A DNA stretch of 64,000 bases, from contig JASEGA010000006.1 of assembly GCA_030018315.1 (NCBI GenBank), forward strand, positions 1,271 through 65,270. The letters run 5' to 3'. Below are positions 3,380 through 60,955 of this stretch, piece after piece. This DNA is from a bacterium. GTDB lineage: Bacteria > Hydrothermota > UBA3073 > JACQXS01 > JAGMCI01. Under the pieces are notes generated by a model. That model did not search any database. It saw only the letters and a program-made list of their open reading frames with translations, and was not told the origin of the DNA. Within the stretch, counting starts at the first letter, position 1. Each line of letters starts with the position of its first letter. Both the position numbers and the translations under genes were made by a program.

Positions 3380-4730
3380 TCACATTCTAAATACTCCAAA
3401 CTTATGGTCCGGAATAGGTGCATTAAGGGACATTGAGATGCCTAACCCAAGCACTGTCCTTGTATCAACTGGGTCAATTATTCCATCATCCCATAGCCTG
3501 GCAGTTGAATAATAAGCACTGGATTGCTCCTCATACTCTCTTAATATAGGCTCACGCAGTTTTTCTCTCTCCTCATCAGTCAATTCCTTACCCTCTTTTT
3601 TAAGTGCTTCTATCTTCACATCTAAAAGAACATCAGCTGCCTGCTCACCACCCATCACACATATTTTAGCATTCGGCCACATCCATAATAACCTCGGTTC
3701 ATATGCTCTGCCACACATCCCATAGTTGCCTGCCCCATAAGAGCCACCTATAATAACTGTAAACTTGGGCACATCTGCATTAGCGACTGCATGCACCATC
3801 TTAGCACCATCTTTGGCTATACCTTGATGCTCATACTTTTTACCTACAATAAAGCCAGTTATATTTTGTAAGAAAACAATATGCTGGCTCGCCAGGCTCT
3901 AAGCGCTCAAGGTCAAACTTCTTTGGTAGAGGTAGATTCTGGACAATATTTCTTGTTATCTCCAAAGCATGCTCATCATTAACCGCATAGTGGTCAGTAA
4001 CACCCGAAATCCGACAGTGAACATCAGCACCACCAAGCTCCTCAACAGTTACTACCTCACCAGTAGCCGCCTTAACAAGCGGCGGCCCCCCAATATAAAT
4101 TGTGCCCTCCTCTTTTACAATAACTACTTCATCACTCATCGCCGGCTGATATGCACCGCCAGCAGTACAGAAGCCCATAACTGCTGAAATCTGTGGTATG
4201 TTCATTGCCGACATGCGTGCCTGATTGTAAAAGATACGTCCAAAGTGGTATTTATCAGGAAAAGTGCCTGCCTGTAATGGTAAAAATATTCCACCCGAAT
4301 CTACGAGATATATACAGGGGAGCCTATTCTCCATCGCAATCTCTTGCGCTCGTATATGTTTTTTAATAGTCTCAGGCACATAAGTGCCACCCTTAACAGT
4401 GGCATCGTGTGCAACTACCATAACTTCTCTGCCATGAACTACACCTATTCCTGTAACTATACCTGCACATGGGTGCTCGTTGTTATACATACCACAACTC
4501 GCAAGTGGTGATAATTCAAGGAATGGTGTATTTGGGTCAAAAAGTAGTTTCAGCCTATCCCTGACAAACAGCTTACCACGTGCCTTATGCTTCTCATGCA
4601 TCTTAGAGGGCCCACCTTTTTTAACCTCAGAAAGCCGTTCCTTTAACTCCTTAACAAGCGACTTCAGGTGCTCCTTGTTTTCATTAAACTCTGAACTATT
4701 TGAATTTATCTTTGACTCTATCTTATACAT
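3380..4730 (-). pseudogene. methylcrotonyl-CoA carboxylase beta / acyl-CoA carboxyltransferase, disrupted by an internal deletion plus frameshift
   Basis: The N-terminal piece (3840-4730) matches the carboxyltransferase N-domain up to ...[11 protein letters not shown]. The C-terminal piece is open from 3899 in another frame ([38 protein letters not shown]...GIFRM). About 65-75 residues of the conserved YGIV...RNIP segment are missing between the pieces, and the junction is not a homopolymer. An intact paralog lies at 25769-27319. Confidence 0.75.
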
Positions 4731-11609: not shown

Positions 11610-12017
11610 TTACTTCTCACATAGCTCAATAAGTACACCATGAACAGCACTCGGGTGCAAGAATGCCACCTTCTTAGTAAATGCACCCTTACTTGGTACT
11701 TCGTCTATTAATTTAATACCCTTAGATTTAAGCTCAGTTAATACTTTTTCAATATCTTTGACTTCAAAGCATAAATGATGTAACCCCTCCCCTTTCTTTT
11801 CTAAAAACTTCGCTATTGGACTATCCTCTCCTATAGGTTCAATAAGTTCAATCTTAACGCTACCTGCATCTCCACAGGATCCTTCGGAAAGCACAGCAAC
11901 CTTAACCTTCCGATAATCTACTTTAGCAAACTTCTCAACTTTAAGTCCAAAAGAAGCCCAAATCTTAATCCTATCCTCAATACTCCTCACCGCTATCCCA
12001 ATATGGTCAAGTTTCAT
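11610..12017 (-). CDS. methylmalonyl-CoA epimerase / VOC (glyoxalase-fold) protein
   Basis: 135 aa; MKLDHIGIAV...HHLCFEV...HGVLIELCE. It carries the short family-A insert (LSEGSCGDAG). Confidence 0.7.
   Translation of the reverse strand: MKLDHIGIAVRSIEDRIKIWASFGLKVEKFAKVDYRKVKVAVLSEGSCGDAGSVKIELIEPIGEDSPIAKFLEKKGEGLHHLCFEVKDIEKVLTELKSKGIKLIDEVPSKGAFTKKVAFLHPSAVHGVLIELCEK
11869..11889. repeat. family-A element, short form (ctccacaggatccttcggaa), in frame inside the epimerase CDS
   Basis: Same sequence as the arms of the long form but without the nested hairpin. Confidence 0.75.
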
Positions 12018-12029
12018 CTTTCACCTATC

Positions 12030-12086
12030 GTAGGGGTTTGATTTATCAAACCCAAACTTATTGGGCACGATAAATCGTACCCCTAC
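12030..12086. repeat. large imperfect inverted repeat (GTAGGGGTTTGATTTATC ... GATAAATCGTACCCCTAC)
   Basis: Arms of 18 nt with 2 mismatches. The core resembles the GGGGTTTGATTAATCAAACCCC palindrome found in the T9SS CTD copies. Confidence 0.5.
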
Positions 12087-14555: not shown

Positions 14556-14577
14556 TTAAACCTCCTCACCACTTTAT

Positions 14578-14608
14578 GACTTTTAGTCTATTACACTTTT
14601 AGATTTCC
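14578..14608 (-). promoter_or_regulatory. TTTTAGACT motif site F3, upstream of alanine dehydrogenase
   Basis: gacttttagtctattacacttttagatttcc. Confidence 0.5.
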
Positions 14609-14647
14609 TTATTAAAAATCAAACCTGACACCAAAGATTCTCATTAA

Positions 14648-22946: not shown

Positions 22947-22952
22947 CTCCAT

Positions 22953-22980
22953 ACTTTTAGACTCTTAGACTCTTATTCTA
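22953..22980 (-). promoter_or_regulatory. TTTTAGACT motif site F5, upstream of the four-helix-bundle gene
   Basis: acttttagactcttagactcttattcta. Confidence 0.5.
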
Positions 22981-23467
22981 TTATTACTAATGTATCGCCC
23001 CCATTTACCGTCATCCCCTGTTTGACAAGTACCTGCTTAACAAGCCCATCTCTTGGTGCCTTCATCTCATTTTGCATCTTCATCGCCTCAACTATCAAAA
23101 GACCACTACCCGCTTTTACTGTATCACCTGGCTTTACCCCTACTTCTATAACTAACCCTGGCATGGGAGCAGTGACCTTAACTTCACCAACATGAGTAAT
23201 CTCAGGCTTGAGTTTAGTGAGTGCTTGTACTTGCTCATCCTCAACACTTACCTTGAATCTCTCACCATCTACCGAAATAGTATTCTCATCCTCAATAATA
23301 ACATCATACGACTTGTTATCAACTATCAGTGATAAATGTGAATTACTGCCAACCTCCACAACAGTAGCTTTCATAGGCTTGTTATCTATATAAACTTTGA
23401 ATCCATTACCTTCTTTTTCTAACTCAACTTTGAACTCCTTATCATCAACTTTAGCAATATATGCCAT
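22973..23467 (-). CDS. biotin carboxyl carrier / biotinyl-domain subunit
   Basis: C-terminal EAMKM biotinylation motif (VEAMKMQNEM) plus a ~90-aa N-terminal extension. Confidence 0.85.
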   Translation of the reverse strand: MAYIAKVDDKEFKVELEKEGNGFKVYIDNKPMKATVVEVGSNSHLSLIVDNKSYDVIIEDENTISVDGERFKVSVEDEQVQALTKLKPEITHVGEVKVTAPMPGLVIEVGVKPGDTVKAGSGLLIVEAMKMQNEMKAPRDGLVKQVLVKQGMTVNGGDTLVIIE

Positions 23468-23480
23468 TTATACTGTCTTA

Positions 23481-23511
23481 CTTTTAGACTATTAGACTTT
23501 TAGTCTATTAT
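23481..23511 (-). promoter_or_regulatory. TTTTAGACT motif site F6, upstream of the biotin carrier gene
   Basis: acttttagactattagacttttagtctatta. Confidence 0.5.
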
Positions 23512-25010
23512 CACATCTTTCTCAATTCTGCCTGCCTCGCTGCAAACTTCCATGCACTGTAACGGGATTCGGATACTTTTGGGATAACTGAAACTTTCTT
23601 CTCTTTTAATGTCATCGCAATGGTTGCCCCTATAGCGGCAATGGGCTGGTTTGTCTTCTTTAATTCTGTGCTACCAAGCATCTTATCTACAAATGTTGTA
23701 TTATACTCACCACTTATAAAATATTGATTATTCATTACAAGCTGATGAAATGGTATACTTGTCTTAATCCCTATTATCTTATATTCAGAGAGTGCTCTCC
23801 TCATCCTTGATATAGATTCATCTCTCGTAGGTGCCCATACAAGTAACTTTGCAATCAACGGGTCATAAAACATAGGAACTTCAAATCCAGCAAATACTCC
23901 ACTATCTACTCTAACACCAGGTCCATTAGGCTCTATTAACTCAACTATTTTACCAGTTGATGGCATAAAGTTATTATCCGGGTCCTCAGCAGTTATCCTG
24001 CACTCTATAGCTGCACCTGATAATTTTACATCCTCTTGCTTAATTGATAGACGCTCACCTGCTGCTATCTTAAGCTGCTCCTTTACAATATCTATTCCGG
24101 TGACAAGCTCAGTTACAGGATGCTCAACCTGTAGCCTTGTATTCATCTCAAGGAAGTAGAAGTTCCTGTCTTTGTCTACCATAAACTCAACTGTCCCCGC
24201 ATTTGTATAACCTGACGCCTTAACTGCCTTGACTGCAGCAGCACCCATCTTAGCTCTAAGCTCTTTAGTCATCAAAGGTGAAGGCGACTCCTCTACTAAC
24301 TTCTGATACCTACGCTGAATAGAACACTCACGCTCACATAGATGGACTGCATTCCCATAGTTATCGGCAAGTATTTGAAACTCTATATGACGAGGAGAGT
24401 CAAGATACTTCTCAATATATATTGTTGGATTACCAAATGCAGACTTGGCTTCTGACATCGCTTGCTTCATAGCTGGCTTAAGCTCAGACTCAGACTTCAC
24501 TACCCTCATCCCTTTGCCACCACCACCAGCAGCCGCTTTTATAAGAACAGGAAAACCTACTTCATTCACAACCTTAATGGCTTCAGCTTCACTTGTAAGC
24601 CCTTTACTGGAACCGGGAGTCACAGGCACTTTAGCTTTAGTTATCGTCTTCCTTGCTTCAATTTTATCACCAAGTAGCCTTATAGCTTTGGAGTTGGGAC
24701 CAATGAATATTATATTATGAGACTCACAAGCCTCTGCAAAATATTCGTTTTCAGCTAGAAAACCATAACCTGGATGAATAGCGTCAGCATCCGTCTTCTT
24801 AGCTACTTCTATAATCTTGTCTATCTTAAGGTAGCTCTCAGCTGCAGGTGCCGGCCCTATCTCATATGCCTCATCTGCATACCTTGTATGCAATGCACTC
24901 CTGTCAGCTTCTGAATAAACTGTAGCTGTAAGTATACCAAGCTCCTTACACGCCCTAAGTACCCTTATTGCAATCTCACCACGATTCGCTACTAAAACCT
25001 TCCTAATCAT
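23511..25010 (-). CDS. biotin carboxylase subunit (acetyl/propionyl-CoA carboxylase or pyruvate carboxylase A-type)
   Basis: 499 aa; MIRKVLVANRGEIAIRV..., an ATP-grasp fold, GGGGKGMR. Confidence 0.92.
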   Translation of the reverse strand: MIRKVLVANRGEIAIRVLRACKELGILTATVYSEADRSALHTRYADEAYEIGPAPAAESYLKIDKIIEVAKKTDADAIHPGYGFLAENEYFAEACESHNIIFIGPNSKAIRLLGDKIEARKTITKAKVPVTPGSSKGLTSEAEAIKVVNEVGFPVLIKAAAGGGGKGMRVVKSESELKPAMKQAMSEAKSAFGNPTIYIEKYLDSPRHIEFQILADNYGNAVHLCERECSIQRRYQKLVEESPSPLMTKELRAKMGAAAVKAVKASGYTNAGTVEFMVDKDRNFYFLEMNTRLQVEHPVTELVTGIDIVKEQLKIAAGERLSIKQEDVKLSGAAIECRITAEDPDNNFMPSTGKIVELIEPNGPGVRVDSGVFAGFEVPMFYDPLIAKLLVWAPTRDESISRMRRALSEYKIIGIKTSIPFHQLVMNNQYFISGEYNTTFVDKMLGSTELKKTNQPIAAIGATIAMTLKEKKVSVIPKVSESRYSAWKFAARQAELRKM

Positions 25011-25226: not shown

Positions 25227-25388
25227 GTGAAATCCCGTGGTTCACCACGACCTTCACGGTTCGACTGAGCTCACCGAAGTTCGGTTAGTTTTACAGAGAG
25301 GCGCTTGGGCCATGTGCTGTCAGTTTCGGCATCAGGTTTGATTCAGGAAGTGGCGAGGTCTATTTTGCGAAAGGCACAGTTATAGGAA

Positions 25389-25670
25389 TTGAAGAAAGCA
25401 AATCCCAAATCCAAAATATCCGCAGGATCCTGTGGATTGGAGGCATATCCTAATCCATTTAGGGATAAAACAGTGATTAGGGTTCAGGGATTAGGTAGGG
25501 GTTTGATTAATCAAACCCCTACACTACAAATTTATGATTTAGCTGGCAGAATAGTTAAGTCGTTCCCACTAATCACTAGCCACTTATCACTATCCACTGC
25601 TGTTTACTGGGACGGAAGTGATAACGATGGCAAGAAGCTCGGTACCGGAAAAATGCTAATTTTGAGATAG
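25389..25670 (+). pseudogene. orphan T9SS C-terminal sorting-domain fragment, a duplicate of the CTD of 27570-28121
   Basis: AYPNPFRDKTVIRVQGLGRGLINQTPTLQIYDLAGRIVKSFPLI... is ~85-90% identical at the nucleotide level to the reverse complement of 27640-27850. It has no cargo domain and starts at a TTG. Confidence 0.45.
25496..25521. repeat. perfect 26-bp palindrome TAGGGGTTTGATTAATCAAACCCCTA inside T9SS CTD coding sequence
   Basis: Self-complementary; a second exact copy lies at 27764-27789. It encodes GLINQTP. Confidence 0.8.
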
Positions 25671-27569: not shown

Positions 27570-28121
27570 TTATCTCACAACAATTATTTTCTTTGTTATA
27601 CTTTTATTACCAGTAGTAAGCTTGCAAAAGTATACACCTGAGTCAACAAATTTTCCAGCTTCATCCTTACCATCCCAAGAAACAGCAGTGATTAGTAAGA
27701 AGTGATCAGTGATAAGTGGAAAAGACTTAACTAATCTACCAGCCAGATCATAGATTTGTAGTGTAGGGGTTTGATTAATCAAACCCCTACCTAATCCCTG
27801 AATCCTAATCACTGTTTTCCCACTGAATGGATTAGGATATACTTCTAACAATTCGTCATTCGTCATTCGGATTTCGGATTTTACCGTCTCTTCTACTCCA
27901 TAAGCATCAACCTTTATAAGATATACATCAGACTCTCCTGCCCCATATGACCAAGTAGATCCAGCTATAATATAGCCACCGTCTCTCGTCTGTGCCACTG
28001 AGTAACCGAAGTCCCAATGAGTTCCGCCATATGTCTTTTCCCAGCCAGCAGATACTACATTAGCCAAACCTGGTAACCCCAATATAGTCACTATTACAGC
28101 CTTAGCAATCAACCTTAACAT
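27570..28121 (-). CDS. small secreted repeat protein with a T9SS C-terminal sorting domain
   Basis: Signal peptide; YGGT.WDFGYSVAQTRDGGYIIAG repeat; C-terminal CTD VYPNPFSGKTVIRIQGLGRG... Confidence 0.7.
   Translation of the reverse strand: MLRLIAKAVIVTILGLPGLANVVSAGWEKTYGGTHWDFGYSVAQTRDGGYIIAGSTWSYGAGESDVYLIKVDAYGVEETVKSEIRMTNDELLEVYPNPFSGKTVIRIQGLGRGLINQTPTLQIYDLAGRLVKSFPLITDHFLLITAVSWDGKDEAGKFVDSGVYFCKLTTGNKSITKKIIVVR
27764..27789. repeat. second copy of the 26-bp perfect palindrome TAGGGGTTTGATTAATCAAACCCCTA
   Basis: Exact match to 25496-25521. Confidence 0.8.
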
Positions 28122-33407: not shown

Positions 33408-34781
33408 ATGGCAGTCCGTATTTTAGTTGTAGACGATGAACCTAATATCAGAAAATCTATAAAAGGATTACTTGAAGATAAAGGCTACGAACTCGAGACA
33501 GTTGCTACTGGTGAGGATGCACTTTTTTGTATAGAGAAAAACAACTTTGATATCGTCTTACTTGATATTGTCTTACCCGGAATTGATGGGATTCAGGTAC
33601 TTGAAAAGATTAAACAAAACAAACCTTATCTTCCTGTAGTTATGATTTCAGGTCAGGCTACAATTGATAATGCAGTAAAAGCGACTAAACTTGGTGCTTA
33701 CGATTTCTTAGAGAAACCAATAATAGGCGAAAAACTGCTACTCCTCATAACACATCTTCTTGAGCATGAAGGGCTTAAAAGACAGGTTGCCAAGCGATAC
33801 ACAATGGTTGGGTCAAGCAATGCCATAAAAAAACTTTACGAAGAGCTTAAAAGAGCTGCCCAATCCAATAGCCGTGTCCTTATTCATGGTGAGAGTGGCA
33901 CAGGCAAAGAACTTGTAGCTCGTGCTATACATGACTACAGTCCTCGAAAAACACAGCCTTTCATAACAGTAAATTGTGCTGCTCTCCCTAAAGAACTTAT
34001 AGAAAGCGAGCTTTTTGGCTACGAGAAGGGTGCATTTACAGGCGCTATTACAAAGAAAGAGGGTAAATTCATTTTAGCAAATACTGGCACTCTATTTTTG
34101 GATGAGGTAGGTGATATGAGTCTTGAGACACAAGCTAAGTTGTTGCGAGTGCTGGAAGAGGGTGAAATAGAGCCATTGGGTGGCAAAACGCCGATAAAAG
34201 TGGATGTAAGAGTTATCTCTGCTACTAACAAGAATCTGGAGTATGAGACTCAAAAAGGAAATTTCAGACAAGATCTACTCTTCAGAATAAATGTAATCCC
34301 TATTTTTGTGCCTCCGCTACGGGAGCGAATTGAGGATATAGGGATTCTATCTAAATATTTTATTAAGTTATTTTGTGAAGAAAACGGTAAACGGTCAAAA
34401 GATATAGAGTCAAGTGCTATAAAAGAACTTGAAAAATATAACTGGCCAGGTAATGTAAGGGAGTTAAAGAATCTTATGGAGCGTCTTGTAATTATGGTAC
34501 CCAGAGATACGATTACTGTAAACGATGTAGTCTCACTATCCCGACCTGTCGGGATAGGAAGCAAGGAAATGATTGTAGGGCAAGGCTTTAGCCTTGCAAA
34601 AAATGAAGAGTTGTCACTTCGGCAGAGAGTAGATAACTTTGAGCGCACACTTATCCAGCAAGCACTTATAGCAGCTGACTGGAATATTAAGAAGGCAGCA
34701 GCCATACTTAAAACTGACCGTGCTAACCTTTATCGTAAGATTAGAGAGTATGGTCTAACTGATTGTAGGGGTAATTCATGA
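33408..34781 (+). CDS. sigma54-dependent response regulator (NtrC family: REC - AAA+ - Fis HTH)
   Basis: ILVVDDE...D receiver; GESGTGKE Walker A; GAFTGA sigma54-contact motif; ELKNLMER; C-terminal HTH. Confidence 0.9.
   Translation: MAVRILVVDDEPNIRKSIKGLLEDKGYELETVATGEDALFCIEKNNFDIVLLDIVLPGIDGIQVLEKIKQNKPYLPVVMISGQATIDNAVKATKLGAYDFLEKPIIGEKLLLLITHLLEHEGLKRQVAKRYTMVGSSNAIKKLYEELKRAAQSNSRVLIHGESGTGKELVARAIHDYSPRKTQPFITVNCAALPKELIESELFGYEKGAFTGAITKKEGKFILANTGTLFLDEVGDMSLETQAKLLRVLEEGEIEPLGGKTPIKVDVRVISATNKNLEYETQKGNFRQDLLFRINVIPIFVPPLRERIEDIGILSKYFIKLFCEENGKRSKDIESSAIKELEKYNWPGNVRELKNLMERLVIMVPRDTITVNDVVSLSRPVGIGSKEMIVGQGFSLAKNEELSLRQRVDNFERTLIQQALIAADWNIKKAAAILKTDRANLYRKIREYGLTDCRGNS
34576..34598. 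repeat. family-D palindromic 23-mer (TAGGGCAAGGCTTTAGCCTTGCA), in frame within the NtrC linker
   Basis: An exact 23-nt match lies at 44431-44453 (intergenic). It encodes VGQGFSLA between the AAA+ and HTH domains. Confidence 0.75.
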
Positions 34782-35095
34782 ATTACCCCTATAACATTAG
34801 TGTCAGACTACAACACCTTTGTGTCAAATTGCTACACAAATAAAAGTTTTAGATACTCTTAAATATTTTACATAAAACACTAAAAACCCATCCCCACAAT
34901 AATTCAGGGAAATAGCTACCAAATTATTGCCCAAATGTCACAGAAGTTGCTATGTTAAGAAAGAGGGTGATTGTAATGAAGAAGAAGTTAGAAGTAGCGG
35001 CAGTTGGGATTGGAGGGTTAGTTCTTTATACCCTCGCTATGGGGATAATGCTTTTTATTAACGCACTAATATTGGTGCGTTAAAGGAGGTGAACT

Positions 35096-42049: not shown

Positions 42050-43078
42050 ATGGCTGAATTAAACCTTTTAGGGATACCTATTCCTAAAAAGTATGGTGGT
42101 GCAGGGCTTGACACACTTTCTTATACTATTGCTGTAGAAGAGGTAGGACGTGTCTGTGGCTCTACAGGGATAACACTTGCTGCTCATACATCACTTGGCT
42201 GTTATCCAATTTATATTGCTGGAAATGAAGGCCAGAAGAAGAAATGGCTTATCCCATTAGCAAAGGGTGAAAAGATAGGCTCATTTGGACTTACTGAGCC
42301 AAATGCAGGCTCAGATGCTGCTGCTACTGAAACTACTGCAAAACTTGAGGGTAACAAATACATAATAAATGGGACTAAAAGATTCATAACATCGGGTGCG
42401 ATAGCAGATATAATAGTATTTACTGCTACACAGGACCGCTCAAAAGGAGTGCACGGTATATCTGCATTTGTAGTTGAGAAAGGGACACCCGGATTCTCAG
42501 CAGGTAAAGAAGAGGATAAACTTGGGCTACGTGGCTCAGTTACTTCTGAACTTATATTTGAAGATTGTGCAATTCCGTGTAAAAACTTGCTCGGTAAAGA
42601 GGGTGATGGCTTCAAAATATTTATGCAAACACTTGATGGCGGTAGAATATCAATAGGCGCACTTGGAATTGCACAGGGAGCGCTTGATGCCTGCATTGAA
42701 TATGTGAAAGAAAGTAAGCCCTCTAACCTGCCTAGCCAAGTCAAGGTGGGTAAACCACTGTATAAATCACAATTCGTTCGAGGTAGAATAGCTGATATGG
42801 TAACAGAGATTGAGGCGGCACGTGGTCTAATTTACAATGCAGCTATACTTAAAGACAGCGGGAAACCGTATACTAAAGAAGCGGCTATGTCGAAACTATA
42901 CGCATCAGAGGTTGGGATGAGAGCTACAACTATGGCAGTTGAGTTACATGGGATAATGGGACTTACAAAGAAATACGAAGTAGAGCGATTTATGCGAGAT
43001 GTTAAGCTTATGGAGATTGGAGAAGGGACATCTGAAATACAGCGTGTAGTCATTGCAAGAGAAATACTGGGTAAATGA
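42050..43078 (+). CDS. acyl-CoA dehydrogenase (the conserved N-terminus extends upstream to ~41909 without a canonical start codon)
   Basis: The frame is open and homologous from 41909 (…HHKEFQEKVRRFAQEELAPRAQEIDKKGEFQF…), with no ATG/GTG/TTG before 42050. EPNAGSD and YEGTSEIQ-like motifs are present. Confidence 0.85.
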   Translation: MAELNLLGIPIPKKYGGAGLDTLSYTIAVEEVGRVCGSTGITLAAHTSLGCYPIYIAGNEGQKKKWLIPLAKGEKIGSFGLTEPNAGSDAAATETTAKLEGNKYIINGTKRFITSGAIADIIVFTATQDRSKGVHGISAFVVEKGTPGFSAGKEEDKLGLRGSVTSELIFEDCAIPCKNLLGKEGDGFKIFMQTLDGGRISIGALGIAQGALDACIEYVKESKPSNLPSQVKVGKPLYKSQFVRGRIADMVTEIEAARGLIYNAAILKDSGKPYTKEAAMSKLYASEVGMRATTMAVELHGIMGLTKKYEVERFMRDVKLMEIGEGTSEIQRVVIAREILGK

Positions 43079-43090: not shown

Positions 43091-44233
43091 ATGAATTTTG
43101 ATTTAACTGCTGACCAGAAGATGCTACAGGAGACAGTGAGAAAGTTTGCTAAGACAGAACTTGAGCCTGTAGCAGCTGAACTGGACAAGACACAGGAGTT
43201 TCCGTGGCTGAATATTAAGAAGCTTGCTAAACTTGGGCTACTTGGTGTGATAGTGCCAGAAAAGTATGGGGGTGCAGGATTTGACTTTGTATCTCTTGCA
43301 ATAGCGATTGAAGAGATATCAAGAGTTTGTGCCACTACAGGCGTGATTGTAGCAGTCAATAACTCACTTACTGCGTATCCTATTTATCAATTTGGGAATG
43401 AAGAACAAAGAAATAAGTGGCTACCCCCACTATGCAAAGGTGAAAAACTTGGTGCTATCGGGATAACTGAGCCAAATGCAGGCTCTGATGTTGCGAGTAT
43501 GGAGTCAACTGCAAGACTTGACGGCAATTCCTATATACTTAATGGGACAAAGAGATTCATTACAAATGCAGGTGAGGCAGGTATATTTGTTGTCTTTGCG
43601 TATACTAATAAAGAAATGAAACACAAAGGAATAAGTGCATTTGTAGTTGAACGGGATACACCAGGATTTACACTCGGAAAGCACGAAGACCTTATGGGTA
43701 TACGAGCAACTGCTAACTGTGAACTTATCTTTGAAGATGCTAAGATACCAAAAGAAAACTTACTTGGTAAAGAAGGTAATGGCTTCAAGATATGTATGCA
43801 TACACTTGATGTGTCAAGAATAGACATAGGAGCGCAAGCAGTAGGCATAGCTCAAGGTGCGCTTGATTCAGCACTGAGCTATTCAAAAGAGCGTAGGGCT
43901 TTTGGTCAGCCAATATGTGAGTTTGAGATGGTCCAGTCAATGCTTGCTGATATGGCAACACAGATACAGGCGGCAAGGTTACTTGTGTATTATGCGGGCT
44001 TCTGTAAAGATAAAGGGATGCCAAGATTCTCAAAAGAAGCCTCTATGGCAAAATGGTTTGCATCTGAGGCTGCAGTGAATGTCACAAGAAAGGCAGTCCA
44101 AATCTATGGCGGCTATGGATATACTAAAGATTATCCGGTAGAGCGATACTATCGTGATGCTAAGATACTTGAGCTTTATGAAGGGACATCAGAGATACAA
44201 AAGATAGTGATTGCAAGAGACTTGTTAAAATAA
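43091..44233 (+). CDS. acyl-CoA dehydrogenase (short/branched-chain type)
   Basis: 380 aa; MNFDLTADQKMLQETVRKFA...; TEPNAGSDVASM; LYEGTSEIQKIVIARDLLK. Confidence 0.9.
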   Translation: MNFDLTADQKMLQETVRKFAKTELEPVAAELDKTQEFPWLNIKKLAKLGLLGVIVPEKYGGAGFDFVSLAIAIEEISRVCATTGVIVAVNNSLTAYPIYQFGNEEQRNKWLPPLCKGEKLGAIGITEPNAGSDVASMESTARLDGNSYILNGTKRFITNAGEAGIFVVFAYTNKEMKHKGISAFVVERDTPGFTLGKHEDLMGIRATANCELIFEDAKIPKENLLGKEGNGFKICMHTLDVSRIDIGAQAVGIAQGALDSALSYSKERRAFGQPICEFEMVQSMLADMATQIQAARLLVYYAGFCKDKGMPRFSKEASMAKWFASEAAVNVTRKAVQIYGGYGYTKDYPVERYYRDAKILELYEGTSEIQKIVIARDLLK

Positions 44234-44297: not shown

Positions 44298-44340
44298 CGT
44301 TTAGAGGCAGGTCTCCTGACCTGCCTCTAAACGAAAATTT
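44298..44340 (+). terminator. rho-independent terminator candidate (14-bp perfect stem)
   Basis: CGTTTAGAGGCAGG-TCTCCTGA-CCTGCCTCTAAACG followed by AAAATTTT. Confidence 0.55.
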
Positions 44341-44430
44341 TGGTTGGGAGACCAAAAACTACCCAAGTAGATTAAAGGAGGTGATGTGTATAATTGGATA
44401 ATAGAAGTTGCTGTGGCATAGAGGCAATGG

Positions 44431-44453
44431 TAGGGCAAGGCTTTAGCCTTGCA
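44431..44453. repeat. family-D palindromic 23-mer, intergenic copy
   Basis: Exact match to 34576-34598. Confidence 0.75.
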
Positions 44454-44479: not shown

Positions 44480-45774
44480 GTGTCCCACCGTAATGGGACA
44501 GAGAATAGACTTGATGCCCCGCACAAGATCAACTATCAAGGCTGGCTTGCAAATGCAGAGGATACTGCTGGGGTGACAGGTAGTTTTGATATGGTGTTTA
44601 GACTATATAATGTACCAACAGGAGGCAGCTCTTTATGGGAGGGAACACAAACCAGTGTTGTAGTGGATAAGGGGATATTCAATGTATATCTTGGAAATGT
44701 TAATCCTATACCTGCAACTCTATTCACTGGAGTACCCTTTATCTTCAGATTCAGGTGGGGAGTGAAGTTCTATCTCCAAGGAAGAAGTTAGTCTCTGTTG
44801 GCTATGCAATGAAAGCAAAGAATGCTAATAATGCTATCTATGCAGATACTGCTAATTATGCACAAAACTTGATTGGTAAAGTCTCATATGCTGATTCAGC
44901 TGGACACATTGTACCACCTGATTCTGTAATCGGAGTAGTATCCAATAATGCACTACTTTACATCAGAAATGACGGTATGGGAGGGTATGGACTCAAGATA
45001 CGTGCCTCATCGGAGGGCATCCATATAGATTCTACATATTATGGAGTTTATATTTACAGTCCAGTATTTGGGGTCAAGATTGATATGCCAATTTACGATG
45101 GTCTCTGTATTGACCAAGCAGGCAACAATGGAGTCTGGATTAATGGAGCGGGTGGAGATGGGGTTTATGCTGTGGCAACACAGCGTGGAGGATATTTTTA
45201 TAACAATAGCACTGGAACAAACTATCCTACTCTTTGGGTTAGAAATGCATACAATAGTACAAGCAGTGAAAGAATTGCTAACTTCTATGCAGGAGTACCA
45301 GAAAAACTAAGATTCTATTTCCAGGGAGATGGTAATGCTTATGCAGATGTTGGATGGAATACATTCAAGAAAAACTCTAAAGGGAGTTATGAATCATACT
45401 CAGCAGTTGAGTCGCAATATAAAGAACTTATAGCTCATAGGACTGGTAAACTTGTAAATGGTGAAGCTTATGTTAAATTTGATGCCTCATTTGCTGAATT
45501 TGTATCTGCTCAATTACCAATTGAGATTACACTGACTCCAGTTGGTTCTTATAGTGGACTATATGTTGTGGAGAAGGATAAATATGGCTTTACTGTCAAG
45601 TCAGGTGCAGGTGATAATAATTGTGAATTTTCATACCTTGCTATTGGGAGAGAGAAAGGCTGCGAACAAAGAGCAGTGGTTGGTAACATTGATGAAGAGG
45701 AGAGACAGGCTCAACTTATGGATGAAATGAAGAGAGCTGAGCATGAGAGGAGGATGGAGTCAAAGAAATATTAA
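44480..45774 (+). CDS. tail-fibre-like surface protein, with an apparent 1-bp frameshift in a C-run (44735-44737)
   Basis: The track splits it into 44480-44791 and 44755-45774. A CCCC in place of CCC gives ...TGVPLYLQIQVGSEVLSPRKKLVSVGYAMKA..., the motif (W)LEI.V...LSPR.KL.SVPYA typical of tail-fibre-domain proteins. Confidence 0.5.
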
Positions 45775-50230: not shown

Positions 50231-52048
50231 ATGATTTTACTCATTTTGAGGTGCTACCTCCTTCTCCTTATTGGACAGGAATTTGATGCTCCTGCTGTGT
50301 CTGACCCTTTAATAGAGGAGCTACAAAGTTTGGAGTCCCATCCGATTGACATTAACAAAGCTAAAAAGGAAGATTTTCTTAAGATATACTGGGTTTCACC
50401 TGGGCTTGCAGAGTCCATTATTAAGACGAGAAAAGAAGTTGGCAGCTTTGATAAGATTGAGGATTTGAGAAAGGTACAGGGTGTGACAGATGAGCTTTTA
50501 GAGTGCATCCGTCCCTATATAACGGTTAAACTACAACGGCAACAAATTTTGGAGGTTAGACCTCAAATTGAACTCAGGTCAAGGGTTCAACAGACTTTTC
50601 CTAAAGTTAAAGGTAATTGGCCGGGTAGCCCAATAAAATCTTACCAGAGGCTTAAATTAAGTAGTAAAAATATTTCTGGATTTGCACTTCTTGAGAAAGA
50701 CCCCTACGAAGCATCGTATTCAGACTTTGCCACTTATGGAATAATGGTGCAGGCGCTCCCAATGGCTCAAAAGATTATACTTGGCGATTACAGGCTTGAA
50801 TTTGGTGAAGGTCTATTGTTTGGCTTTCCTCCTATTGTTACTTTCAAGCAGCAGGGTGTAATTAAAGGGAAAGAGCGGGGACTTCAACTATACACTATTA
50901 CTGGTGAAAATACATATTTACATGGTGTAGCAGTAGAGTCCAAATCCTATCGTGGGATTAAGAATTTCGTAATCCTATCAAATACAAAAATTGATAATGG
51001 TGGTGGCGTATCGCAATACGCCCCTACCATCTATGATTATGAAGGAGACCACTCAACTGAGTCAGGCGAAGCTAAAAAAGACAGAGTAAGAGAGTGGCTG
51101 ATTGGGACAAGATTTGAGTACCATGGTCCAATTAAACTTGGGCTTACATGGTATAAAAATACGCATTTCTTAAATCCAGAAGAGGTTAGACCTCAAGGCA
51201 CTAAAATAGGGACTCATAGCTTATGGAGTGTGAGTAGTTCAACCTCATTAGCTGGATTTGAGGTGTTACCTCTTAACTGGTTTAGTGAATTTGGCTGGTG
51301 TGATAAAAGTTGGGCAACAGTGCTTGGTACAGAATACGGGAAAGAAAAATTAAGACTTGGCACTCTATTTAGATATTATCCACCCGATTTCCCTGTGTTC
51401 CATTCGGCACCATTTTCTGACAGCTACAAGCTTGCTGAAAAAGGTAATTATCTATATGGAGCGTATCAGATTTCAAAATACACAAAATTAACAGGCTATA
51501 CAGATTATTGCACACGATATTCTACTGAGTTACCAACTTTGCATGCTGAACATTCTATTGAGTTACAGCATAAGTTTACACCGCATTTTTGGCTTACAAG
51601 TAGATACTCTTTTAAAAAGGTAGAGGTATCACCTCGAGGTGAGTCTGAATGCAAATGGTTTAGATTACAAGCAGATATTGAAGCCGCCAAACTTAATATG
51701 AGAGTCAGACTTGATAGAGGCTATGAGGCTGGGTCTCAAGAGGTTAGACCTCAAGGTGAGCTTTTGTACGGCGATATAGGAGTTAAGTTTTCAAAATACT
51801 TATCATTTACTACGAGGTTGATTTTATTTGATTCTGAACTCGACAAGTTTGGTCTTTATGAGTATGAGCAAGACTTACCAGGTCTTATGACAAACCAGTT
51901 TATAAGTGATAAAGGGACAAGACTATATTTGCTTTTGAAAAATAGAATTGCATCCAGCTACACGGTTACTGTGAAATATGCAATAACATCAAAGATAGCT
52001 AAGCCCGTGACACAAAAATACGGCATCCAATTTGATTTAGAGCACTAA
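50231..52048 (+). CDS. ComEA-like helix-hairpin-helix domain protein fused to a large beta-rich (outer-membrane-like) region
   Basis: The N-terminal INKAKKEDFLKIYWVSPGLAESIIKTRKEVGSFDKIEDLRKVQGVTDELLECI matches the HhH DNA-binding domain. The C-terminus has alternating beta-strand patterns. Confidence 0.45.
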   Translation: MILLILRCYLLLLIGQEFDAPAVSDPLIEELQSLESHPIDINKAKKEDFLKIYWVSPGLAESIIKTRKEVGSFDKIEDLRKVQGVTDELLECIRPYITVKLQRQQILEVRPQIELRSRVQQTFPKVKGNWPGSPIKSYQRLKLSSKNISGFALLEKDPYEASYSDFATYGIMVQALPMAQKIILGDYRLEFGEGLLFGFPPIVTFKQQGVIKGKERGLQLYTITGENTYLHGVAVESKSYRGIKNFVILSNTKIDNGGGVSQYAPTIYDYEGDHSTESGEAKKDRVREWLIGTRFEYHGPIKLGLTWYKNTHFLNPEEVRPQGTKIGTHSLWSVSSSTSLAGFEVLPLNWFSEFGWCDKSWATVLGTEYGKEKLRLGTLFRYYPPDFPVFHSAPFSDSYKLAEKGNYLYGAYQISKYTKLTGYTDYCTRYSTELPTLHAEHSIELQHKFTPHFWLTSRYSFKKVEVSPRGESECKWFRLQADIEAAKLNMRVRLDRGYEAGSQEVRPQGELLYGDIGVKFSKYLSFTTRLILFDSELDKFGLYEYEQDLPGLMTNQFISDKGTRLYLLLKNRIASSYTVTVKYAITSKIAKPVTQKYGIQFDLEH

Positions 52049-53839: not shown

Positions 53840-56176
53840 ATGACGAAAAATGACAGTCTCAAAGAGCGAGATTGCTTCGCTATCGCTCGCAATGACATTT
53901 ACGGAGTGAAGCATCTAATGTGTAGAACTTTAAGCTGGCTTGTAATTTTTACTTTCTATTTCATACTTCCCACTTTCATTTATGCTGAAATAATTGTAGA
54001 GCTTAAAGTAGAGGGGATAGAAAATGTAGCCCCTGGTCTTGTAATTTCAACATCAGGTTTAGAAATAGGGGATGAGTTAACTGTGGAGAGTGTAAGGAAT
54101 GCTGTCAAGCAAATTTATAGGACACAGTTGTTTAAAGATGTTGAGATACAGTACGAAAAAGAGGGTGGTGGGGTAAAGCTTACTATATTGGTCAAGGAAT
54201 ACCCACGTATATCTAAGATTGGGTTCAAATGGAATAAAAAATTTAAGGATAAGAAGCTACTTGAACTATGTGGCTTAAAAGAGGGTGACATTGGAGTTGA
54301 GACATCAATTTTTAATGGAGCAGTAAAGATACGCAAGGCTTATAAGAAGGATGGTTATTATTTGGCAGAAGTTAAACCTGTTACAGAAGAGGTCAATAAA
54401 GAGCTCAAGGTGGAATACCTAATTACAGAGGGTAAGCGTGTTAAGATTCGCTCAATTGAAATTATTGGTAATCGTGCTTTTAAAGATGACGAACTTGAAA
54501 AGAGGCTAAAAAATAGAGAAAAGAGATGGTACAGGTCAGGTAATTTTAGTGGAGAAGAATTTGAAAATGACCCAGATAAGATTGTTGAGTTTTATCGGAA
54601 TCATGGGTATCCGAACTGTAAAGTTGTGGATGTGAATATAGTGCCTGATGAAAATAAAGAATGGGTTAGAATATACATTAAGATTGATGAAGGTAGTAAG
54701 CTATTTTTGGGTAATGTAGGTTTTGATGGTAATAAAGTTATAGATACAAGAGATTTAATTAAAGAAGTGAAGTTTAAAAGGCTCTCCCTTTATTCAAGTA
54801 ATGCCTTATCAAAGACATTAGAAGGTATCTATAGTCTTTATGGGAATCGTGGCTACATATATGCAATCGTTGACCCTGTAGAAGAGTTAAGTGACAGTGT
54901 TGTAGATATAACTTATAAAATCAAAGAAGGCAAACCGGCAAGGATACATAAGATTATAATTGAAAATAATACAAAAACACACGAAAAAGTTATACGACGC
55001 GAACTCACAATATTTCCCGGTGATATACTGTCTCGTAAAGAATTAATAAATTCACAGCGTAAGGTGTTTAATTTAGGGTTCTTCAAGAACATAACCCTTG
55101 ATACAAAGCCTGCCTCGCCAAGTCAAGGTGGGCAAGCCAATGAGCAAGGGGATATAGACCTTATAATTAAAGTAGAAGAGAAACCAGCAGGCCAAGCCTC
55201 TCTTGGTGCCAGTTATTATCCGAAGCATGGCCTTGTGGGTAATCTTGGTTTATCTACTCCTAATTTTAGAGGTATGGGTGAGCTATTATACATCAACTTA
55301 CAGAAAGGTGAAAAGTTACAGACTCTTGAAGCAGGTTACAACAGGCCATGGCTATTTGATACACCTATGAGTGTAGGGTTAGACGCATTTCATACTTTTG
55401 AGAAGCGCCCGTTATATAAAACACAGAGAACAGGTGGCAATGTTAAGGTTGGTAGGCCTATACCAAGACTTACATTCACAAAAGGGTACATTTCGTATAA
55501 ACTTGAGCGTGTGAAAGCATCAGCTGATGATACTGCTTCGTTAAGTTCTTATATAAAAGAGAGCCTTGGCGACCGTATTAGGAGTGTAGCTACATTTGAA
55601 GTTGTAAGAGACTCGCGTGATAATTTCCTTAATCCGACAACAGGGACACGTAATGATGCAGAAATTGAACTCTCAGGCGGTCCTTTAGGTGGTAGTGTAG
55701 ATTACCATAAGGAGATATTTGAAACTTCTACTTATCACAAACTTTTTTGGCGTTTTGTGCTTGGCTTAAGGGGTAAGTTTGGCGCTATAGATGGATACAG
55801 AACACCGGCTGATGTCCCTTTATATGAGCGGTTTATACTTGGTGGTATAGGAGAATGGGGGCTAAGAGGGTACAGGGACTGGTCAATAGGACCTGAAAGG
55901 GATGGTGAAGTAATAGGTGGCAGATTTGCATCCTTGTTCACAATTGAGACTAAAATTTCTTTTGAAGAAAATCTTTATCCACTTGTATTTTTAGATGCCG
56001 GTAATACATGGGAATGTTTCAAAGAGGCTAATTTTCAGGACCTAAAGCGGGGGGTGGGGGTTGGGTTTAGGATAGAGATACCAATGATGGGACTGGTAGG
56101 GTTTGATTTTGGCTATGGTATAGATAAGAAACCAAGAGGATGGGAGTTCCATTTGCAGATGGGGAAGCTGTTTTAA
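53840..56176 (+). CDS. bamA: outer membrane protein assembly factor BamA
   Basis: 778 aa; five POTRA-like segments followed by an Omp85 beta-barrel; C-terminal GWEFHLQMGKLF. Confidence 0.9.
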   Translation: MTKNDSLKERDCFAIARNDIYGVKHLMCRTLSWLVIFTFYFILPTFIYAEIIVELKVEGIENVAPGLVISTSGLEIGDELTVESVRNAVKQIYRTQLFKDVEIQYEKEGGGVKLTILVKEYPRISKIGFKWNKKFKDKKLLELCGLKEGDIGVETSIFNGAVKIRKAYKKDGYYLAEVKPVTEEVNKELKVEYLITEGKRVKIRSIEIIGNRAFKDDELEKRLKNREKRWYRSGNFSGEEFENDPDKIVEFYRNHGYPNCKVVDVNIVPDENKEWVRIYIKIDEGSKLFLGNVGFDGNKVIDTRDLIKEVKFKRLSLYSSNALSKTLEGIYSLYGNRGYIYAIVDPVEELSDSVVDITYKIKEGKPARIHKIIIENNTKTHEKVIRRELTIFPGDILSRKELINSQRKVFNLGFFKNITLDTKPASPSQGGQANEQGDIDLIIKVEEKPAGQASLGASYYPKHGLVGNLGLSTPNFRGMGELLYINLQKGEKLQTLEAGYNRPWLFDTPMSVGLDAFHTFEKRPLYKTQRTGGNVKVGRPIPRLTFTKGYISYKLERVKASADDTASLSSYIKESLGDRIRSVATFEVVRDSRDNFLNPTTGTRNDAEIELSGGPLGGSVDYHKEIFETSTYHKLFWRFVLGLRGKFGAIDGYRTPADVPLYERFILGGIGEWGLRGYRDWSIGPERDGEVIGGRFASLFTIETKISFEENLYPLVFLDAGNTWECFKEANFQDLKRGVGVGFRIEIPMMGLVGFDFGYGIDKKPRGWEFHLQMGKLF

Positions 56177-56184: not shown

Positions 56185-57264
56185 ATGAATACAGATAATC
56201 CTAAACTAAATTTTTTCATTTTTCATTTTTTATTTTTCATTTTGTTATCCGGTTGTGGCAAGAAGGAGCCGATTGGGTATGAGATTGTGAAACCGAGGGA
56301 GGGTGAAATTAGACAAGCGCGGGGTTTCGTGGTTAGGTGGAATAATTATTCAGAGTTTGCATCTATGAGTAGAGCTACAGAGTTATTTGCGGGAGAGGAG
56401 TGTGACTTTAAGGCGATGGCTTTCATTTGCTTTGAATTTGATACTACTCTTTTACCTGATTCACTTTGGCTACTTGGAGTGAATTCTGGTAAAGTGAAAG
56501 TTTGTAAAGTCACAGGATTATGGAACCCGGACTCTATAAATTGGAGTCATATTCCGGATACAGGTGAGATATTTGATACTGTTGAAATTAAAGAAGGTGA
56601 TACCTGTTTGGTTTACATACAGGATTCAGTACCGGATTCAGTATTCTCTATTGGCTTCTTACCATATATTGGGATGGCAAGCTTTAAACCACTACGACTG
56701 TCAGTAAAGGAGGATACAAATTTCTATTCTCCAAGTAAGAAAGTGTACATTGATACAAGTTATTTTACACAAGATTTGCCAATGATTGAGACAGGTGCTT
56801 ATACTACACAATGTACACTTTGGTTTAGTTTGGAGATACCAGTGTTTCTCAAGGAGACCACTTATATTCCAATTGACTCTTTTTTAGGTGATACTGTGTT
56901 TCCATGCACTTTGGTTGTAGGTGATTCTTTTATTACTGATACTTCTGTGATTAATTACATCCTTAACTTTAAATCTGCTACCGTAAATGATGCGTCATTT
57001 TATATTCCTATAGATACAACTAATTCTTACAAATGGGATATAGGGATTTATGCTGGCTGTAGAGGTGTGTATTCATCAAGTTCTCACCCAAAAGGTGACA
57101 CACTTAGTTTATCAATTGAGAGAATAGTAGATAGGTGGTTTAAAGAAGGCGACTGCTGGCTTGTTTTGAAAGGTGATGCACAGAAGATTGGACGTGTTGT
57201 GTTTGATATAGAGGGTGCTCAGCTTTCTATAACTTATATACTACCACCTAAAAGAAGGGAATGA
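56185..57264 (+). CDS. hypothetical lipoprotein
   Basis: MNTDNPKLNFFIFHFLFFILLSGCGKK (lipobox LSGC). The start at 56185 is preferred over the track start at 56140, which overlaps bamA. Confidence 0.5.
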   Translation: MNTDNPKLNFFIFHFLFFILLSGCGKKEPIGYEIVKPREGEIRQARGFVVRWNNYSEFASMSRATELFAGEECDFKAMAFICFEFDTTLLPDSLWLLGVNSGKVKVCKVTGLWNPDSINWSHIPDTGEIFDTVEIKEGDTCLVYIQDSVPDSVFSIGFLPYIGMASFKPLRLSVKEDTNFYSPSKKVYIDTSYFTQDLPMIETGAYTTQCTLWFSLEIPVFLKETTYIPIDSFLGDTVFPCTLVVGDSFITDTSVINYILNFKSATVNDASFYIPIDTTNSYKWDIGIYAGCRGVYSSSSHPKGDTLSLSIERIVDRWFKEGDCWLVLKGDAQKIGRVVFDIEGAQLSITYILPPKRRE

Positions 57265-58355
57265 ATAAACTTAAAATGCAAAACTCAAACCTACAGCTCA
57301 AAATGCAAAATTATAAACCACAAGATTTACACGAGATTAACACCAGATTGATTTTTTCTCTTGTGAAAATTTGTGTAATCTGTGGTTTCTTATTGCTTGG
57401 TTCGGCTTATTGTTATTCACTCTTCTCTGGCGGTGGATTAGGTGAGCCAGTAGAGGTGCAGAATGCGGCTTACATTGGGATGGGAGGGATACAAAAGTTT
57501 AAACTGCCGAGTCAATTAACATTTGAGTTCTCTATGGTATTGGAAATTGTAGATGAGGATGGTAAGGCTACGAACTTTGATTTCACACTCCCATATGTGA
57601 GATATGTGCTACCCTTGCCTAAAGAGGTAGCACCTCAAGGTATGGGAATAGACATTGGTCTAAATGAAGTATTAAATTTAAATTTTGACATCCATAGTCC
57701 ATGGGAAGAGTTGTATGGTGACTCAGTTCAACGCCGTGTTAAAAGTAGAGGCAGTGCAAGTATAGGGAAGATAGGAATTGGCAAGAACTTCAGCTCTATC
57801 GCAGTTGAACTTGGTGGCTTTGTAGTTTTTGGGTCAGCTCAAGAGGAGTGGGTTACAGACTTTAAGACTATGCATGATGCATATGATACGCTGAGATTAA
57901 AATTTTTTGGTCCCGGGTATTTGGCATCTATAGGATTGGATTTTTGGAAATTTGGCTTAAGTGCAAGCTATCTATCACATGCTAAACTTACTTCTAATAC
58001 CAACCTTCCGTCAAGAGTTGTTGCATCGATAAGTTATACTCCTATTGAAAAAGCTACAGTCGAAATAGGGGTTACAAGTTGGCAGTGGAGTAGTCCATTT
58101 AAGCCAATGAATAGAGTATCAGTGGGGGGTAAGTATGAAATTAGTCCATTGATATTACGGTGTGGTTTTTACACTAACAACTGGTATTATGGAGATATAA
58201 AAGAACGGGTTGGTGCATTAGGCTTGGGTATTCCACTTAAATCACTTTGTACGATTGATTTGAGCTTTGAGTTTGGTAAAAGGTGGAACCCTATCCTTGA
58301 AGAGAGGATTTACAGGGCTTGTATAACCTTACAGGGAAAAGAATCATTGATGTAG
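57261..58355 (+). CDS. hypothetical outer-membrane beta-barrel-like protein; the C-terminal SLM* is supplied by the E-family repeat
   Basis: Signal/TM N-terminus and alternating beta patterns; ATGA overlap with the upstream gene. Confidence 0.4.
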   Translation: MNKLKMQNSNLQLKMQNYKPQDLHEINTRLIFSLVKICVICGFLLLGSAYCYSLFSGGGLGEPVEVQNAAYIGMGGIQKFKLPSQLTFEFSMVLEIVDEDGKATNFDFTLPYVRYVLPLPKEVAPQGMGIDIGLNEVLNLNFDIHSPWEELYGDSVQRRVKSRGSASIGKIGIGKNFSSIAVELGGFVVFGSAQEEWVTDFKTMHDAYDTLRLKFFGPGYLASIGLDFWKFGLSASYLSHAKLTSNTNLPSRVVASISYTPIEKATVEIGVTSWQWSSPFKPMNRVSVGGKYEISPLILRCGFYTNNWYYGDIKERVGALGLGIPLKSLCTIDLSFEFGKRWNPILEERIYRACITLQGKESLM

Positions 58356-58393
58356 ACAGAAATGTATGGGCGGGGTAACCCCGCCCCTACGAA
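58344..58393 (+). repeat. E-family REP-like element (TCATTGATGTAGACAGAAATGTA-GGGCGGGGTAACCCCGCCC-CTAC), copy 1
   Basis: GC hairpin GGGCGGGG-TAA-CCCCGCCC followed by a T6 run. Its first 12 nt encode S-L-M-stop of the preceding gene. A partial copy lies at 58436-58447. Confidence 0.8.
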
Positions 58394-59870: not shown

Positions 59871-59909
59871 ACAGAAATGTAGGGGCGGGGTAACCCCGCC
59901 CCTACAATG
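59859..59909 (+). repeat. E-family REP-like element, copy 2
   Basis: TCATTGATGTAGACAGAAATGTAGGGGCGGGGTAACCCCGCCCCTACAATG. It overlaps the skp-like stop (…ISLM*) and ends 2 nt before the lpxD ATG. Confidence 0.8.
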
Positions 59910-60910: not shown

Positions 60911-60955
60911 TGTAAACAGAAATGTAGGGGCGGGGTTACCCTTGTCCCTACAATG
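60904..60955 (+). repeat. E-family REP-like element, copy 3 (diverged hairpin)
   Basis: TCATTGATGTAAACAGAAATGTAGGGGCGGGGTTACCCTTGTCCCTACAATG. It supplies the lpxD stop (GH*) and overlaps the lpxC start. Confidence 0.75.

Follow-up and report, generated by a model that had tools for sequence, protein, structure and literature searches.

A probable GTAG-tagged REP hairpin in the linker of an NtrX-like regulator gene and at an intergenic site of a Hydrothermota genome

Repetitive extragenic palindromes (REPs) of the GTAG type possess an unpaired GTAG end, stems of 6-13 bp and short loops, and they fall into sub-families whose stems differ by compensatory changes (Di Nocera et al. 2013, PMC3733652). 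They occur as head-out or tail-out dimers, mainly between co-oriented or convergent genes; their ends can supply stop codons, and occasional copies are found in frame inside genes (PMC3733652). In general, REPs are palindromes that measure 20-50 nt and have stems of 6-13 bp and short loops, and roles of their hairpins in the host are documented (PMC3733652, PMC8266576). They are considered substrates of a single-copy enzyme, RAYT/TnpAREP, which binds the folded single strand and needs the GTAG (PMC8266576). In the TnpAY1 subclass 2.7, a REP flanks the RAYT gene and a related REP lies inside it (Quentin et al. 2018, PMC6006769). Hairpins are also known from IS200/IS605 insertion sequences, where subterminal single-stranded DNA hairpins and an adjacent guide/cleavage tetranucleotide are recognised by a Y1 HUH enzyme (PMC8266576). 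Among the Rickettsia palindromic elements (RPEs), RPE-1 represents longer palindromic insertions, and RPE-4 and RPE-6 were equated with intragenic CGTC repeats (PMC3733652). Here, we describe a short palindromic block, termed family D, that occurs twice in 64,000 nucleotides of a bacterium of the Hydrothermota (assembly GCA_030018315.1, contig JASEGA010000006.1, positions 1,271 to 65,270 of the forward strand; hereafter the window), once within the gene of a sigma-54-dependent response regulator and once between genes.

We consider it likely that this block is the unit of a GTAG-tagged REP which landed in the linker DNA of an NtrX-like regulator, the other copy being an ordinary extragenic singleton. 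The block was assigned to the GTAG REPs because its anatomy and family features match their published definition. The assignment builds on direct observation of the anatomy and dispersal of the unit, of its insertion relative to orthologues, of the disordered context in the protein, of features found throughout the family and of the RAYT association of a sister hairpin in the same gene.

A reading of the window from its sequence alone (the sequence-only reading) had reported an exactly repeated 23-mer at 34576-34598 and 44431-44453 and had regarded a chance match as negligible. A window search allowing up to three mismatches confirmed these two copies, both perfect, as the only ones, and none of 100 dinucleotide shuffles of the window contained any 23-mer match. 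The repeat is one base longer than reported, as G is also shared on the 5' side at 34575 and 44430; the shared block is the 24-mer GTAGGGCAAGGCTTTAGCCTTGCA at 34575-34598 (copy 1) and 44430-44453 (copy 2), exact and on the plus strand at both sites. Alignment of 60-nt flanks on each side of the two copies revealed no real similarity outside the 24-mer. An exact 24-nt identity could in principle result from segmental duplication or gene conversion between two loci without any mobile element, and one other hairpin pair of the window (25495/27763) does belong to a segment of about 190 nt that is duplicated in inverted orientation. For family D such an origin is extremely improbable: the similarity stops at the edges of the 24-mer, and the same 23-mer was found in more than 130 unrelated contexts of other genomes, where its edges are also sharp. 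The earlier view of a dispersed element rather than a segmental duplication is therefore retained, as the flanks did not extend into a longer shared segment.

Copy 1 comprises the GTAG(GG) tag at 34575-34579, a stem formed by 34580-34586 and 34591-34597, and the loop TTTA at 34587-34590. Each copy folds into a 7-bp stem (GCAAGGC/GCCTTGC) with a 4-nt loop of the TTYA type at a calculated DNA energy of -7.5 kcal/mol, with z scores of -2.8 and -3.1. The GTAG(GG) head precedes the stem and is unpaired, and the 3' flank was not complementary to it in either window copy. Family D thus carries an unpaired GTAG-type tetranucleotide at one end of its palindrome, and its 23-nt unit, 7-bp stem and 4-nt loop fit the limits of GTAG REPs. 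An Rfam scan of the whole window gave no match at gathering score, and a tRNA scan of the window found nothing.

The gene hosting copy 1 (33408..34781, plus strand) encodes an NtrX-like sigma-54-dependent response regulator of 457 aa with receiver, AAA+ and HTH_8 domains. It had been called NtrC at first, yet it is closer to what sources name NtrX. As already noticed in the sequence-only reading, the block lies in frame in the linker between the AAA+ and HTH domains, where the codons GTA GGG CAA GGC TTT AGC CTT GCA are read as VGQGFSLA (residues 390-397). The best homologue, P0002, showed 69% identity and the same gene order of kinase, regulator, small open reading frame (ORF) and Omp85 gene; the regulator is the sole member of its 90% sequence cluster. 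DNA alignment with the syntenic orthologue (locus L121) revealed two clean gaps in the orthologue, one of 38+1 nt in the linker and one of 31 nt at the 3' end. The stretch absent from L121 in the linker, 34566..34603 (plus strand), holds copy 1; its 38 nt, the exact boundaries being uncertain, and 1 nt at 34545 add up to 39 nt or 13 codons. Upon protein alignment, all four closest orthologues were devoid of the 13 linker residues. Between conserved anchors, the linker comprised 44 residues in the window protein as compared to 30-31 in these four, and across 71 homologues its length ranged from 30 to 44 with the window protein at the top. The coding copy of family D is a real in-frame insertion which added 13 amino acids. 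A mini-element hitting the coding region in frame had been proposed and is supported by these alignments; of the linker prediction, the greater length held, and the expected extension of about 8-10 residues proved too small.

An AlphaFold2 model of the regulator based on a 72-sequence alignment reached a mean predicted local distance difference test (pLDDT) score of 88.8. Scores below 50 were confined to residues 381-399, the linker stretch modelled as disordered, and 455-457, which are the two spots touched by hairpins. As the linker is naturally variable and predicted to be disordered, the extra residues are most likely neutral. Two other features were recorded in this part of the gene. A perfect hairpin with a 9-bp stem, CTATCCCGAcctgTCGGGATAG, is located in the linker coding region at 34536-34557, 18 nt upstream of copy 1; it occurs once in the window, lacks the GTAG tag and aligns with the orthologue without an indel. 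Chance alone would produce about 1.7 stems of this kind in 64 kb, yet its closeness to copy 1 is odd. The sequence AAATGA on both sides of copy 1 was considered as a target duplication and dismissed, as no such pattern was present in 131 other copies.

Copy 2 follows the stop codon of an acyl-CoA dehydrogenase gene (43091..44233) at a distance of 197 nt and precedes the GTG at 44480 by 27 nt, and the earlier description as intergenic was correct. It is a singleton with no inverted partner. For both window copies, the genes are co-oriented and the copy lies on their sense strand. Upstream of copy 2, at 44298-44333, a hairpin of 16 bp had a terminator-like score on the minus strand only. The ORF downstream of copy 2 is apparently split by a frameshift (44480..44791 and 44755..45774), which indicates a pseudogene or an assembly error. 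The label 'tail-fibre-like' given to this gene in the sequence-only reading could not be verified by a Pfam scan of 44755..45774, which gave no match.

The position of copy 2 27 nt upstream of an ORF start, and the fact that one host gene encodes a sigma-54 activator, would also suit a regulatory site, namely a sigma-54 promoter (GG-N10-GC inside GGCTTTAGCCTTGCA) or a binding site of an enhancer-binding protein that is autoregulatory in the activator gene; indeed, GGC...TTGCA at sigma-54 spacing is visible in the sequence. We judge this explanation quite improbable. The element differs from TGGCACGNNNNTTGCW (TGGCACG-N4-TTGCW) by 4 mismatches in 12 specified positions, and it was not among the window matches with up to 2 mismatches, which themselves occurred at chance level. 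Furthermore, it is a palindrome found in either orientation and in a wide range of gene contexts, and the sister stem variants ACC and CCC, which are dimer partners of family D, are devoid of the -24 GG. Receiver and kinase genes near copies simply belong to abundant families: around the 134 listed copies described below, no recurrent neighbour gene was found, and only generic receiver, kinase and ABC families clustered.

Other genomes were scanned with the pattern GTAGGGCAAGGC-N4-GCCTTGC using one genome per species. At least 120 loci with at least 134 copies were obtained, as compared to about 4 matches expected by chance when a uniform base composition is assumed. The hosts were metagenome-assembled genomes (MAGs) of WOR-3, Stahlbacteria, Brocadiales (anammox), Nitrospirota, Nitrospinota, Elusimicrobiota, Thermodesulfobacteriota, Omnitrophota, Desantisbacteria, Schekmanbacteria, Firestonebacteria, Ignavibacteria and others; at least 12 phylum-level lineages contained the exact unit. 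Two Brocadiaceae bins held at least 10 copies per MAG; genomes rich in family D include B4_bin.26 (Brocadiaceae), ERP119702_co1_214 and SKW300 (WOR-3). Across 131 listed copies, conservation ended precisely at the edges of the 23-mer and the flanks were unrelated. In the loop, whose four positions were unconstrained in the pattern, T, T, Y and A stood in at least 94% of these copies; the GTAG head was fixed in the pattern, and its invariance is not independent evidence. A perfect hairpin came after 23% of the GTAGG occurrences, as compared to 1-4.5% for seven control pentamers. The central stem triplet covaried according to GTAGGGCAA[GGC/ACC/CCC/GCC]TTYA[GCC/GGT/GGG/GGC]TTGC, revealing compensatory sub-families. 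An inverted partner (...TTGCCCTAC, with a CCCTAC end) was found within 40 nt for about 23% of the listed copies. In Brocadiaceae, two REPs in inverted orientation and the conserved 26-nt linker between them form a composite resembling a bacterial interspersed mosaic element (BIME); outward inverted dimers were thus found elsewhere, whereas both window copies are singletons. Judged by their sequences, the listed copies form one element family, because sharp edges, a conserved loop, hairpin excess, covariation and inverted partners were all found.

The copies were predominantly extragenic, with 3 of the 134 listed lying at least 120 nt inside a frame of at least 200 codons. Only one convincing protein was found to carry a deeply intragenic copy. 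This is a WOR-3 protein sorted by the type IX secretion system (T9SS), with 790 codons from stop to stop (L101, 2436-2458). There, the unit is read in the same frame as VGQGFSLA, the peptide of the regulator, and is placed just before the IYD..GR strand of the sorting domain. Head-to-tail mini-arrays of family D with 16-21 nt spacers were observed in L105 (17-105) and L007 (463-524), an arrangement said to be rare for GTAG REPs. A viral collection contained 3 family D copies only, giving no sign of phage carriage. A MITE, a miniature transposable element with inverted repeats, would likewise be small, palindromic and dispersed. This assignment appears very improbable, as 23 nt is far below the size of a MITE, no consistent target-site duplication was found among the 131 listed copies, and the window and the listed loci contained no related insertion sequence. 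The flanks of the copies showed a weak pyrimidine preference at position -1 only.

The regulator gene contains a second GTAG REP, GTAGGGGTAATTCATGAATTACCCCTA, at 34765..34791 (plus strand), with an 11-bp stem and the loop CATG. The 31-nt gap of the orthologue at the 3' end corresponds to 34754-34784 in the alignment and covers most of this hairpin. The hairpin and bases preceding it in the 31-nt insert jointly encode a new C-terminus, YGLTDCRGNS as compared to YGLLEE in the orthologue, and the stop codon TGA of the regulator is provided by the hairpin loop. TAAC on both sides of the 34765 element was considered as a target duplication; this was unsupported, and no such pattern was found in the 131 family D copies.

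A metagenome scan with the 34765-type hairpin GTAGGGGTAATTCATGAATTACCCCTAC yielded at least 120 loci with at least 233 copies; among the matches listed, the loop was CATG in 210 of 233 and TAC followed in 202 of 233. In 11 of the 120 listed loci, a RAYT-like ORF of 175-207 aa was found with the motifs MPNH[VIF]H (HUH), WQRNYYEHIIR (WQ) and YIxNNP, and Pfam Y1_Tnp scored above cut-off in all four ORFs tested. The hairpin was located within about 15 nt of the end of the RAYT ORF in 7 of the 11 loci. Furthermore, a sister hairpin was found in frame inside the RAYT gene in 9 of 11, mostly read as VGAIHELPL (L186, L183, L206, L222, L234, L225, L215, L141 and L198). As 34765-type hairpins adjoin Y1_Tnp RAYT genes in these metagenome loci, the GTAGGG hairpin class of the window includes at least one bona fide REPtron family. 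The REP inside the environmental RAYT genes mostly had the sequence GTAGGGGC[AG]ATTCATGAAT[TC]GCCCCTA, and in L141 the REP region coincided with a frame break in the RAYT gene. Tandem arrays with a period of 266-271 nt and one GTAGGGGTAATTCATGAATTACCCCTAC hairpin per unit were observed in L148 (5412-6489 and 8611-9341) and L144 (6690-7251).

Several results weigh against a RAYT-driven REP. The window yielded neither a RAYT nor any other transposase (about 40 ORFs by Pfam; E. coli RayT by phmmer), and phmmer with E. coli RayT detected no RAYT in the 0.9 Mb around the 134 listed family D copies. A hidden Markov model of the environmental RAYTs gave nothing convincing on the same family D data, with a best hit in L070 at E = 9e-4, and a regular-expression search for RAYT motifs in the family D loci and the window found nothing. 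Only two copies of the family D stem variant are present in 64 kb. The REP accounts for only 24 of the 39 extra nucleotides in the linker and leaves 15 over, and at 69% identity of the orthologue the boundaries of the insertion are approximate. REP/RAYT pairs are generally described as vertically inherited and host-specific. An identical unit in at least 12 phyla is unusual for such pairs. The exact unit in so many phyla, with no RAYT in 0.9 Mb, might point to a REP lineage moving between phyla, to propagation by something other than a resident RAYT, or to repeated recruitment as protein sequence, given the VGQGFSLA peptide in the T9SS protein of WOR-3; we regard these options as rather unlikely.

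The missing RAYT near listed family D copies would also fit a structural hairpin selected by the host, for example one that stabilises mRNA 3' ends, acts in attenuation or is bound by gyrase or IHF, which was spread by recombination and is not a transposase substrate. The sense-strand position of both copies in co-oriented genes, the mostly extragenic copies elsewhere, the compensatory stem changes that keep the structure, and the documented roles of REPs cited above are in line with this idea. However, it does not account for an unpaired GTAGGG head that never varies, a conserved loop, sharp edges or a copy in a coding linker, and we think it unlikely. Moreover, such roles are compatible with RAYT-driven spread, and the sister variant has a direct link to RAYT.

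Taking family D as a GTAG REP, the following mechanism is proposed. REPs would spread as non-autonomous hairpins of single-stranded DNA, with a single-copy HUH/Y1 RAYT (TnpAREP) that would bind the folded hairpin and its GTAG tag, cut the strand and rejoin it. One family D hairpin, probably moved by RAYT in single-stranded form, may have entered the linker-coding DNA of the regulator. RAYT mobilisation is suggested for family D by analogy, as the RAYT association was seen for the sister 34765 hairpin only. Copy 1 would have been tolerated because the net insert of 39 nt equals 13 codons, its forward frame is free of stops, and the linker is variable and disordered. Frame 1 is the only forward frame without a stop in the TTTA variant, and hence only an insertion in frame 1 would keep the protein intact. 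For intergenic copy 2, a sense-strand singleton, the sole likely effect would be a small RNA or DNA hairpin.

The window was further examined for hairpins of the same plan. GTAGGG or CCCTAC heads at least 11 hairpins with different stems in the 64-kb window. The sequence-only reading had taken family D for a third, independent family of mini-elements. This independence was not upheld, because the GTAGGG head and the hairpin plan are common to at least 10 other window elements, one of which lies in the same gene, and all fit the GTAG REP superfamily. A head-outward dimer is located in the intergenic region 12030..12086 and consists of GTAGGGGTTTGATTTATCAAACCC, a 9-nt linker and the inverted GTAGGGGTACGATTTATCGTGCCC. 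The fully palindromic REP GTAGGGGTTTGATTAATCAAACCCCTAC is present at 25495..25522, inside the remnant of a T9SS C-terminal domain, and at 27763..27790 in the T9SS sorting domain of ORF 27570..28121 (minus strand). The two copies belong to the inverted duplicated segment of about 190 nt mentioned above (25380-25620, plus strand; 27670-27910, minus strand), which encodes a T9SS C-terminal sorting domain with GTAGGGGTTTGATTAATCAAACCCCTAC read as GRGLINQTP in each; the copy at 25.4 kb is apparently a domain remnant without a protein body.

The hairpin GTAGGGGCGTATTGCGATACGCC (51005..51027, minus strand) lies inside ORF 50231..52048 encoding an HHH_3 protein and is read as GVSQYAPT. It was considered as a clean insertion in this 605-aa protein; P0122 and P0123, its homologues, carry a different segment of almost equal length at this place (net difference of +1 residue), which indicates a replaced segment instead. 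Three further elements follow genes: GTAGGGGCGGGGTTACCCCGCCC at 58368..58390 (minus strand), just past the stop of ORF 57261..58355; GTAGGGGCGGGGTAACCCCGCCCCTAC at 59879..59905 between the OmpH and LpxD genes (OmpH ends at 59870); and the degenerate copy GTAGGGGCGGGGTTACCCTTGTCCCTAC at 60924..60951 (plus strand) between the LpxD and LpxC genes (LpxD ends at 60910). The first of these is part of a 53-nt repeat unit (..TCATTGATGTAGACAGAAATGTAGGGGCGGGGTAACCCCGCCCCTAC) found at 58338-58390, 59853-59905 and 60898-60950 after three consecutive genes (unknown, OmpH, LpxD). This unit provides the last codons and the stop of each of the three genes, two of which end in K[EI]SLM*. The 13-kb orthologous locus L121 contained no GTAGGG hairpin, and the expansion of these hairpins is therefore lineage-specific.

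Pfam scans of about 40 ORFs of the window revealed ordinary housekeeping genes. Another short repeat family, CCTGCCTAGCCAAGTCAAGGTGGGTAAACCACTG, was observed inside three coding regions at 42727-42760, 55109-55142 and 58953-58986; in the acyl-CoA dehydrogenase 42050..43078 it apparently adds PSNLPSQVKVGKPLY as compared to the paralogue 43091..44233. Runs of the 8-nt periodic motif TTAGACT(A/T)TTAGAC at 1262-1294, 11573-11620, 14567-14614, 22949-22993 and 23468-23523 are intergenic and adjoin minus-strand genes; they may represent arrays of operators or promoters. A carboxyl transferase is apparently divided into two ORFs, with the N-terminal part at 3840..4730 and the C-terminal part at 3380..3799, which indicates a pseudogene or an assembly error. 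Additionally, toxin-antitoxin-like genes of the HEPN and nucleotidyltransferase (MNT) type are located at 4948-5648, 7214-7546 and 62204-62614 among genes of CoA metabolism.

Several 'mini-element families' of the sequence-only reading would thus be one phenomenon, a REP-rich genome, in which GTAGGG hairpins lie between genes, act as suppliers of stop codons and occasionally occur in coding DNA. Two REPs appear to have been inserted separately into the regulator gene: one lengthened the linker by 13 residues, the other rewrote the C-terminus and brought a new stop. Since the empty sites are seen in the syntenic orthologue, this gene would illustrate clearly and on a small scale how selfish hairpins remodel a regulator. 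The broad phyletic spread of one exact REP sequence merits a dedicated survey. Literature searches by sequence strings retrieved no relevant paper, and nothing relevant was found on REP or RAYT in connection with anammox bacteria or candidate phyla.

With IS200/IS605, family D shares a hairpin with an adjacent tetranucleotide; unlike these elements, it is a lone 23-mer, and no transposase is carried between hairpins. The RPEs of Rickettsia are similar in that palindromes occur in frame in coding genes and are tolerated in surface or linker regions (PMC3733652). They show no sequence relation to family D, and the coding addition observed here amounts to 13 residues only. RPE-1 has a length of about 100-150 bp. 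In REPINs, an inverted REP doublet reportedly serves as the replicating unit. The inverted family D doublets of Brocadiaceae resemble them, whereas neither window copy has a partner, and here a single REP already forms a hairpin. As in the REPtron/TnpAY1 subclass 2.7, GTAGGGGTAATTCATGAATTACCCCTAC flanks Y1_Tnp genes with the motifs [ND]H[VIF]H, WQ and YIxNNP, and a REP is found inside the RAYT gene; in contrast to that subclass, the association was seen in metagenome loci only, neither in the window genome nor for family D.

The GTAG REP superfamily differs from family D in its hosts, which are here mostly uncultivated anaerobic or candidate phyla, and in the tag, which is here extended to GTAGGG; the strings GTAGGG and GCAAGG are absent from the text of PMC3733652. 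Tag, stem, loop, sub-families, outward dimers with conserved linkers and the mostly extragenic location of family D are all like those of the superfamily and of the REP/BIME elements of E. coli and Pseudomonas. Stop codons supplied by element ends and occasional in-frame copies, both typical of the superfamily, were seen here as well. Elements of this kind, their copies inside genes and their partner enzyme have been described before; the stem/loop variant and its hosts are new.

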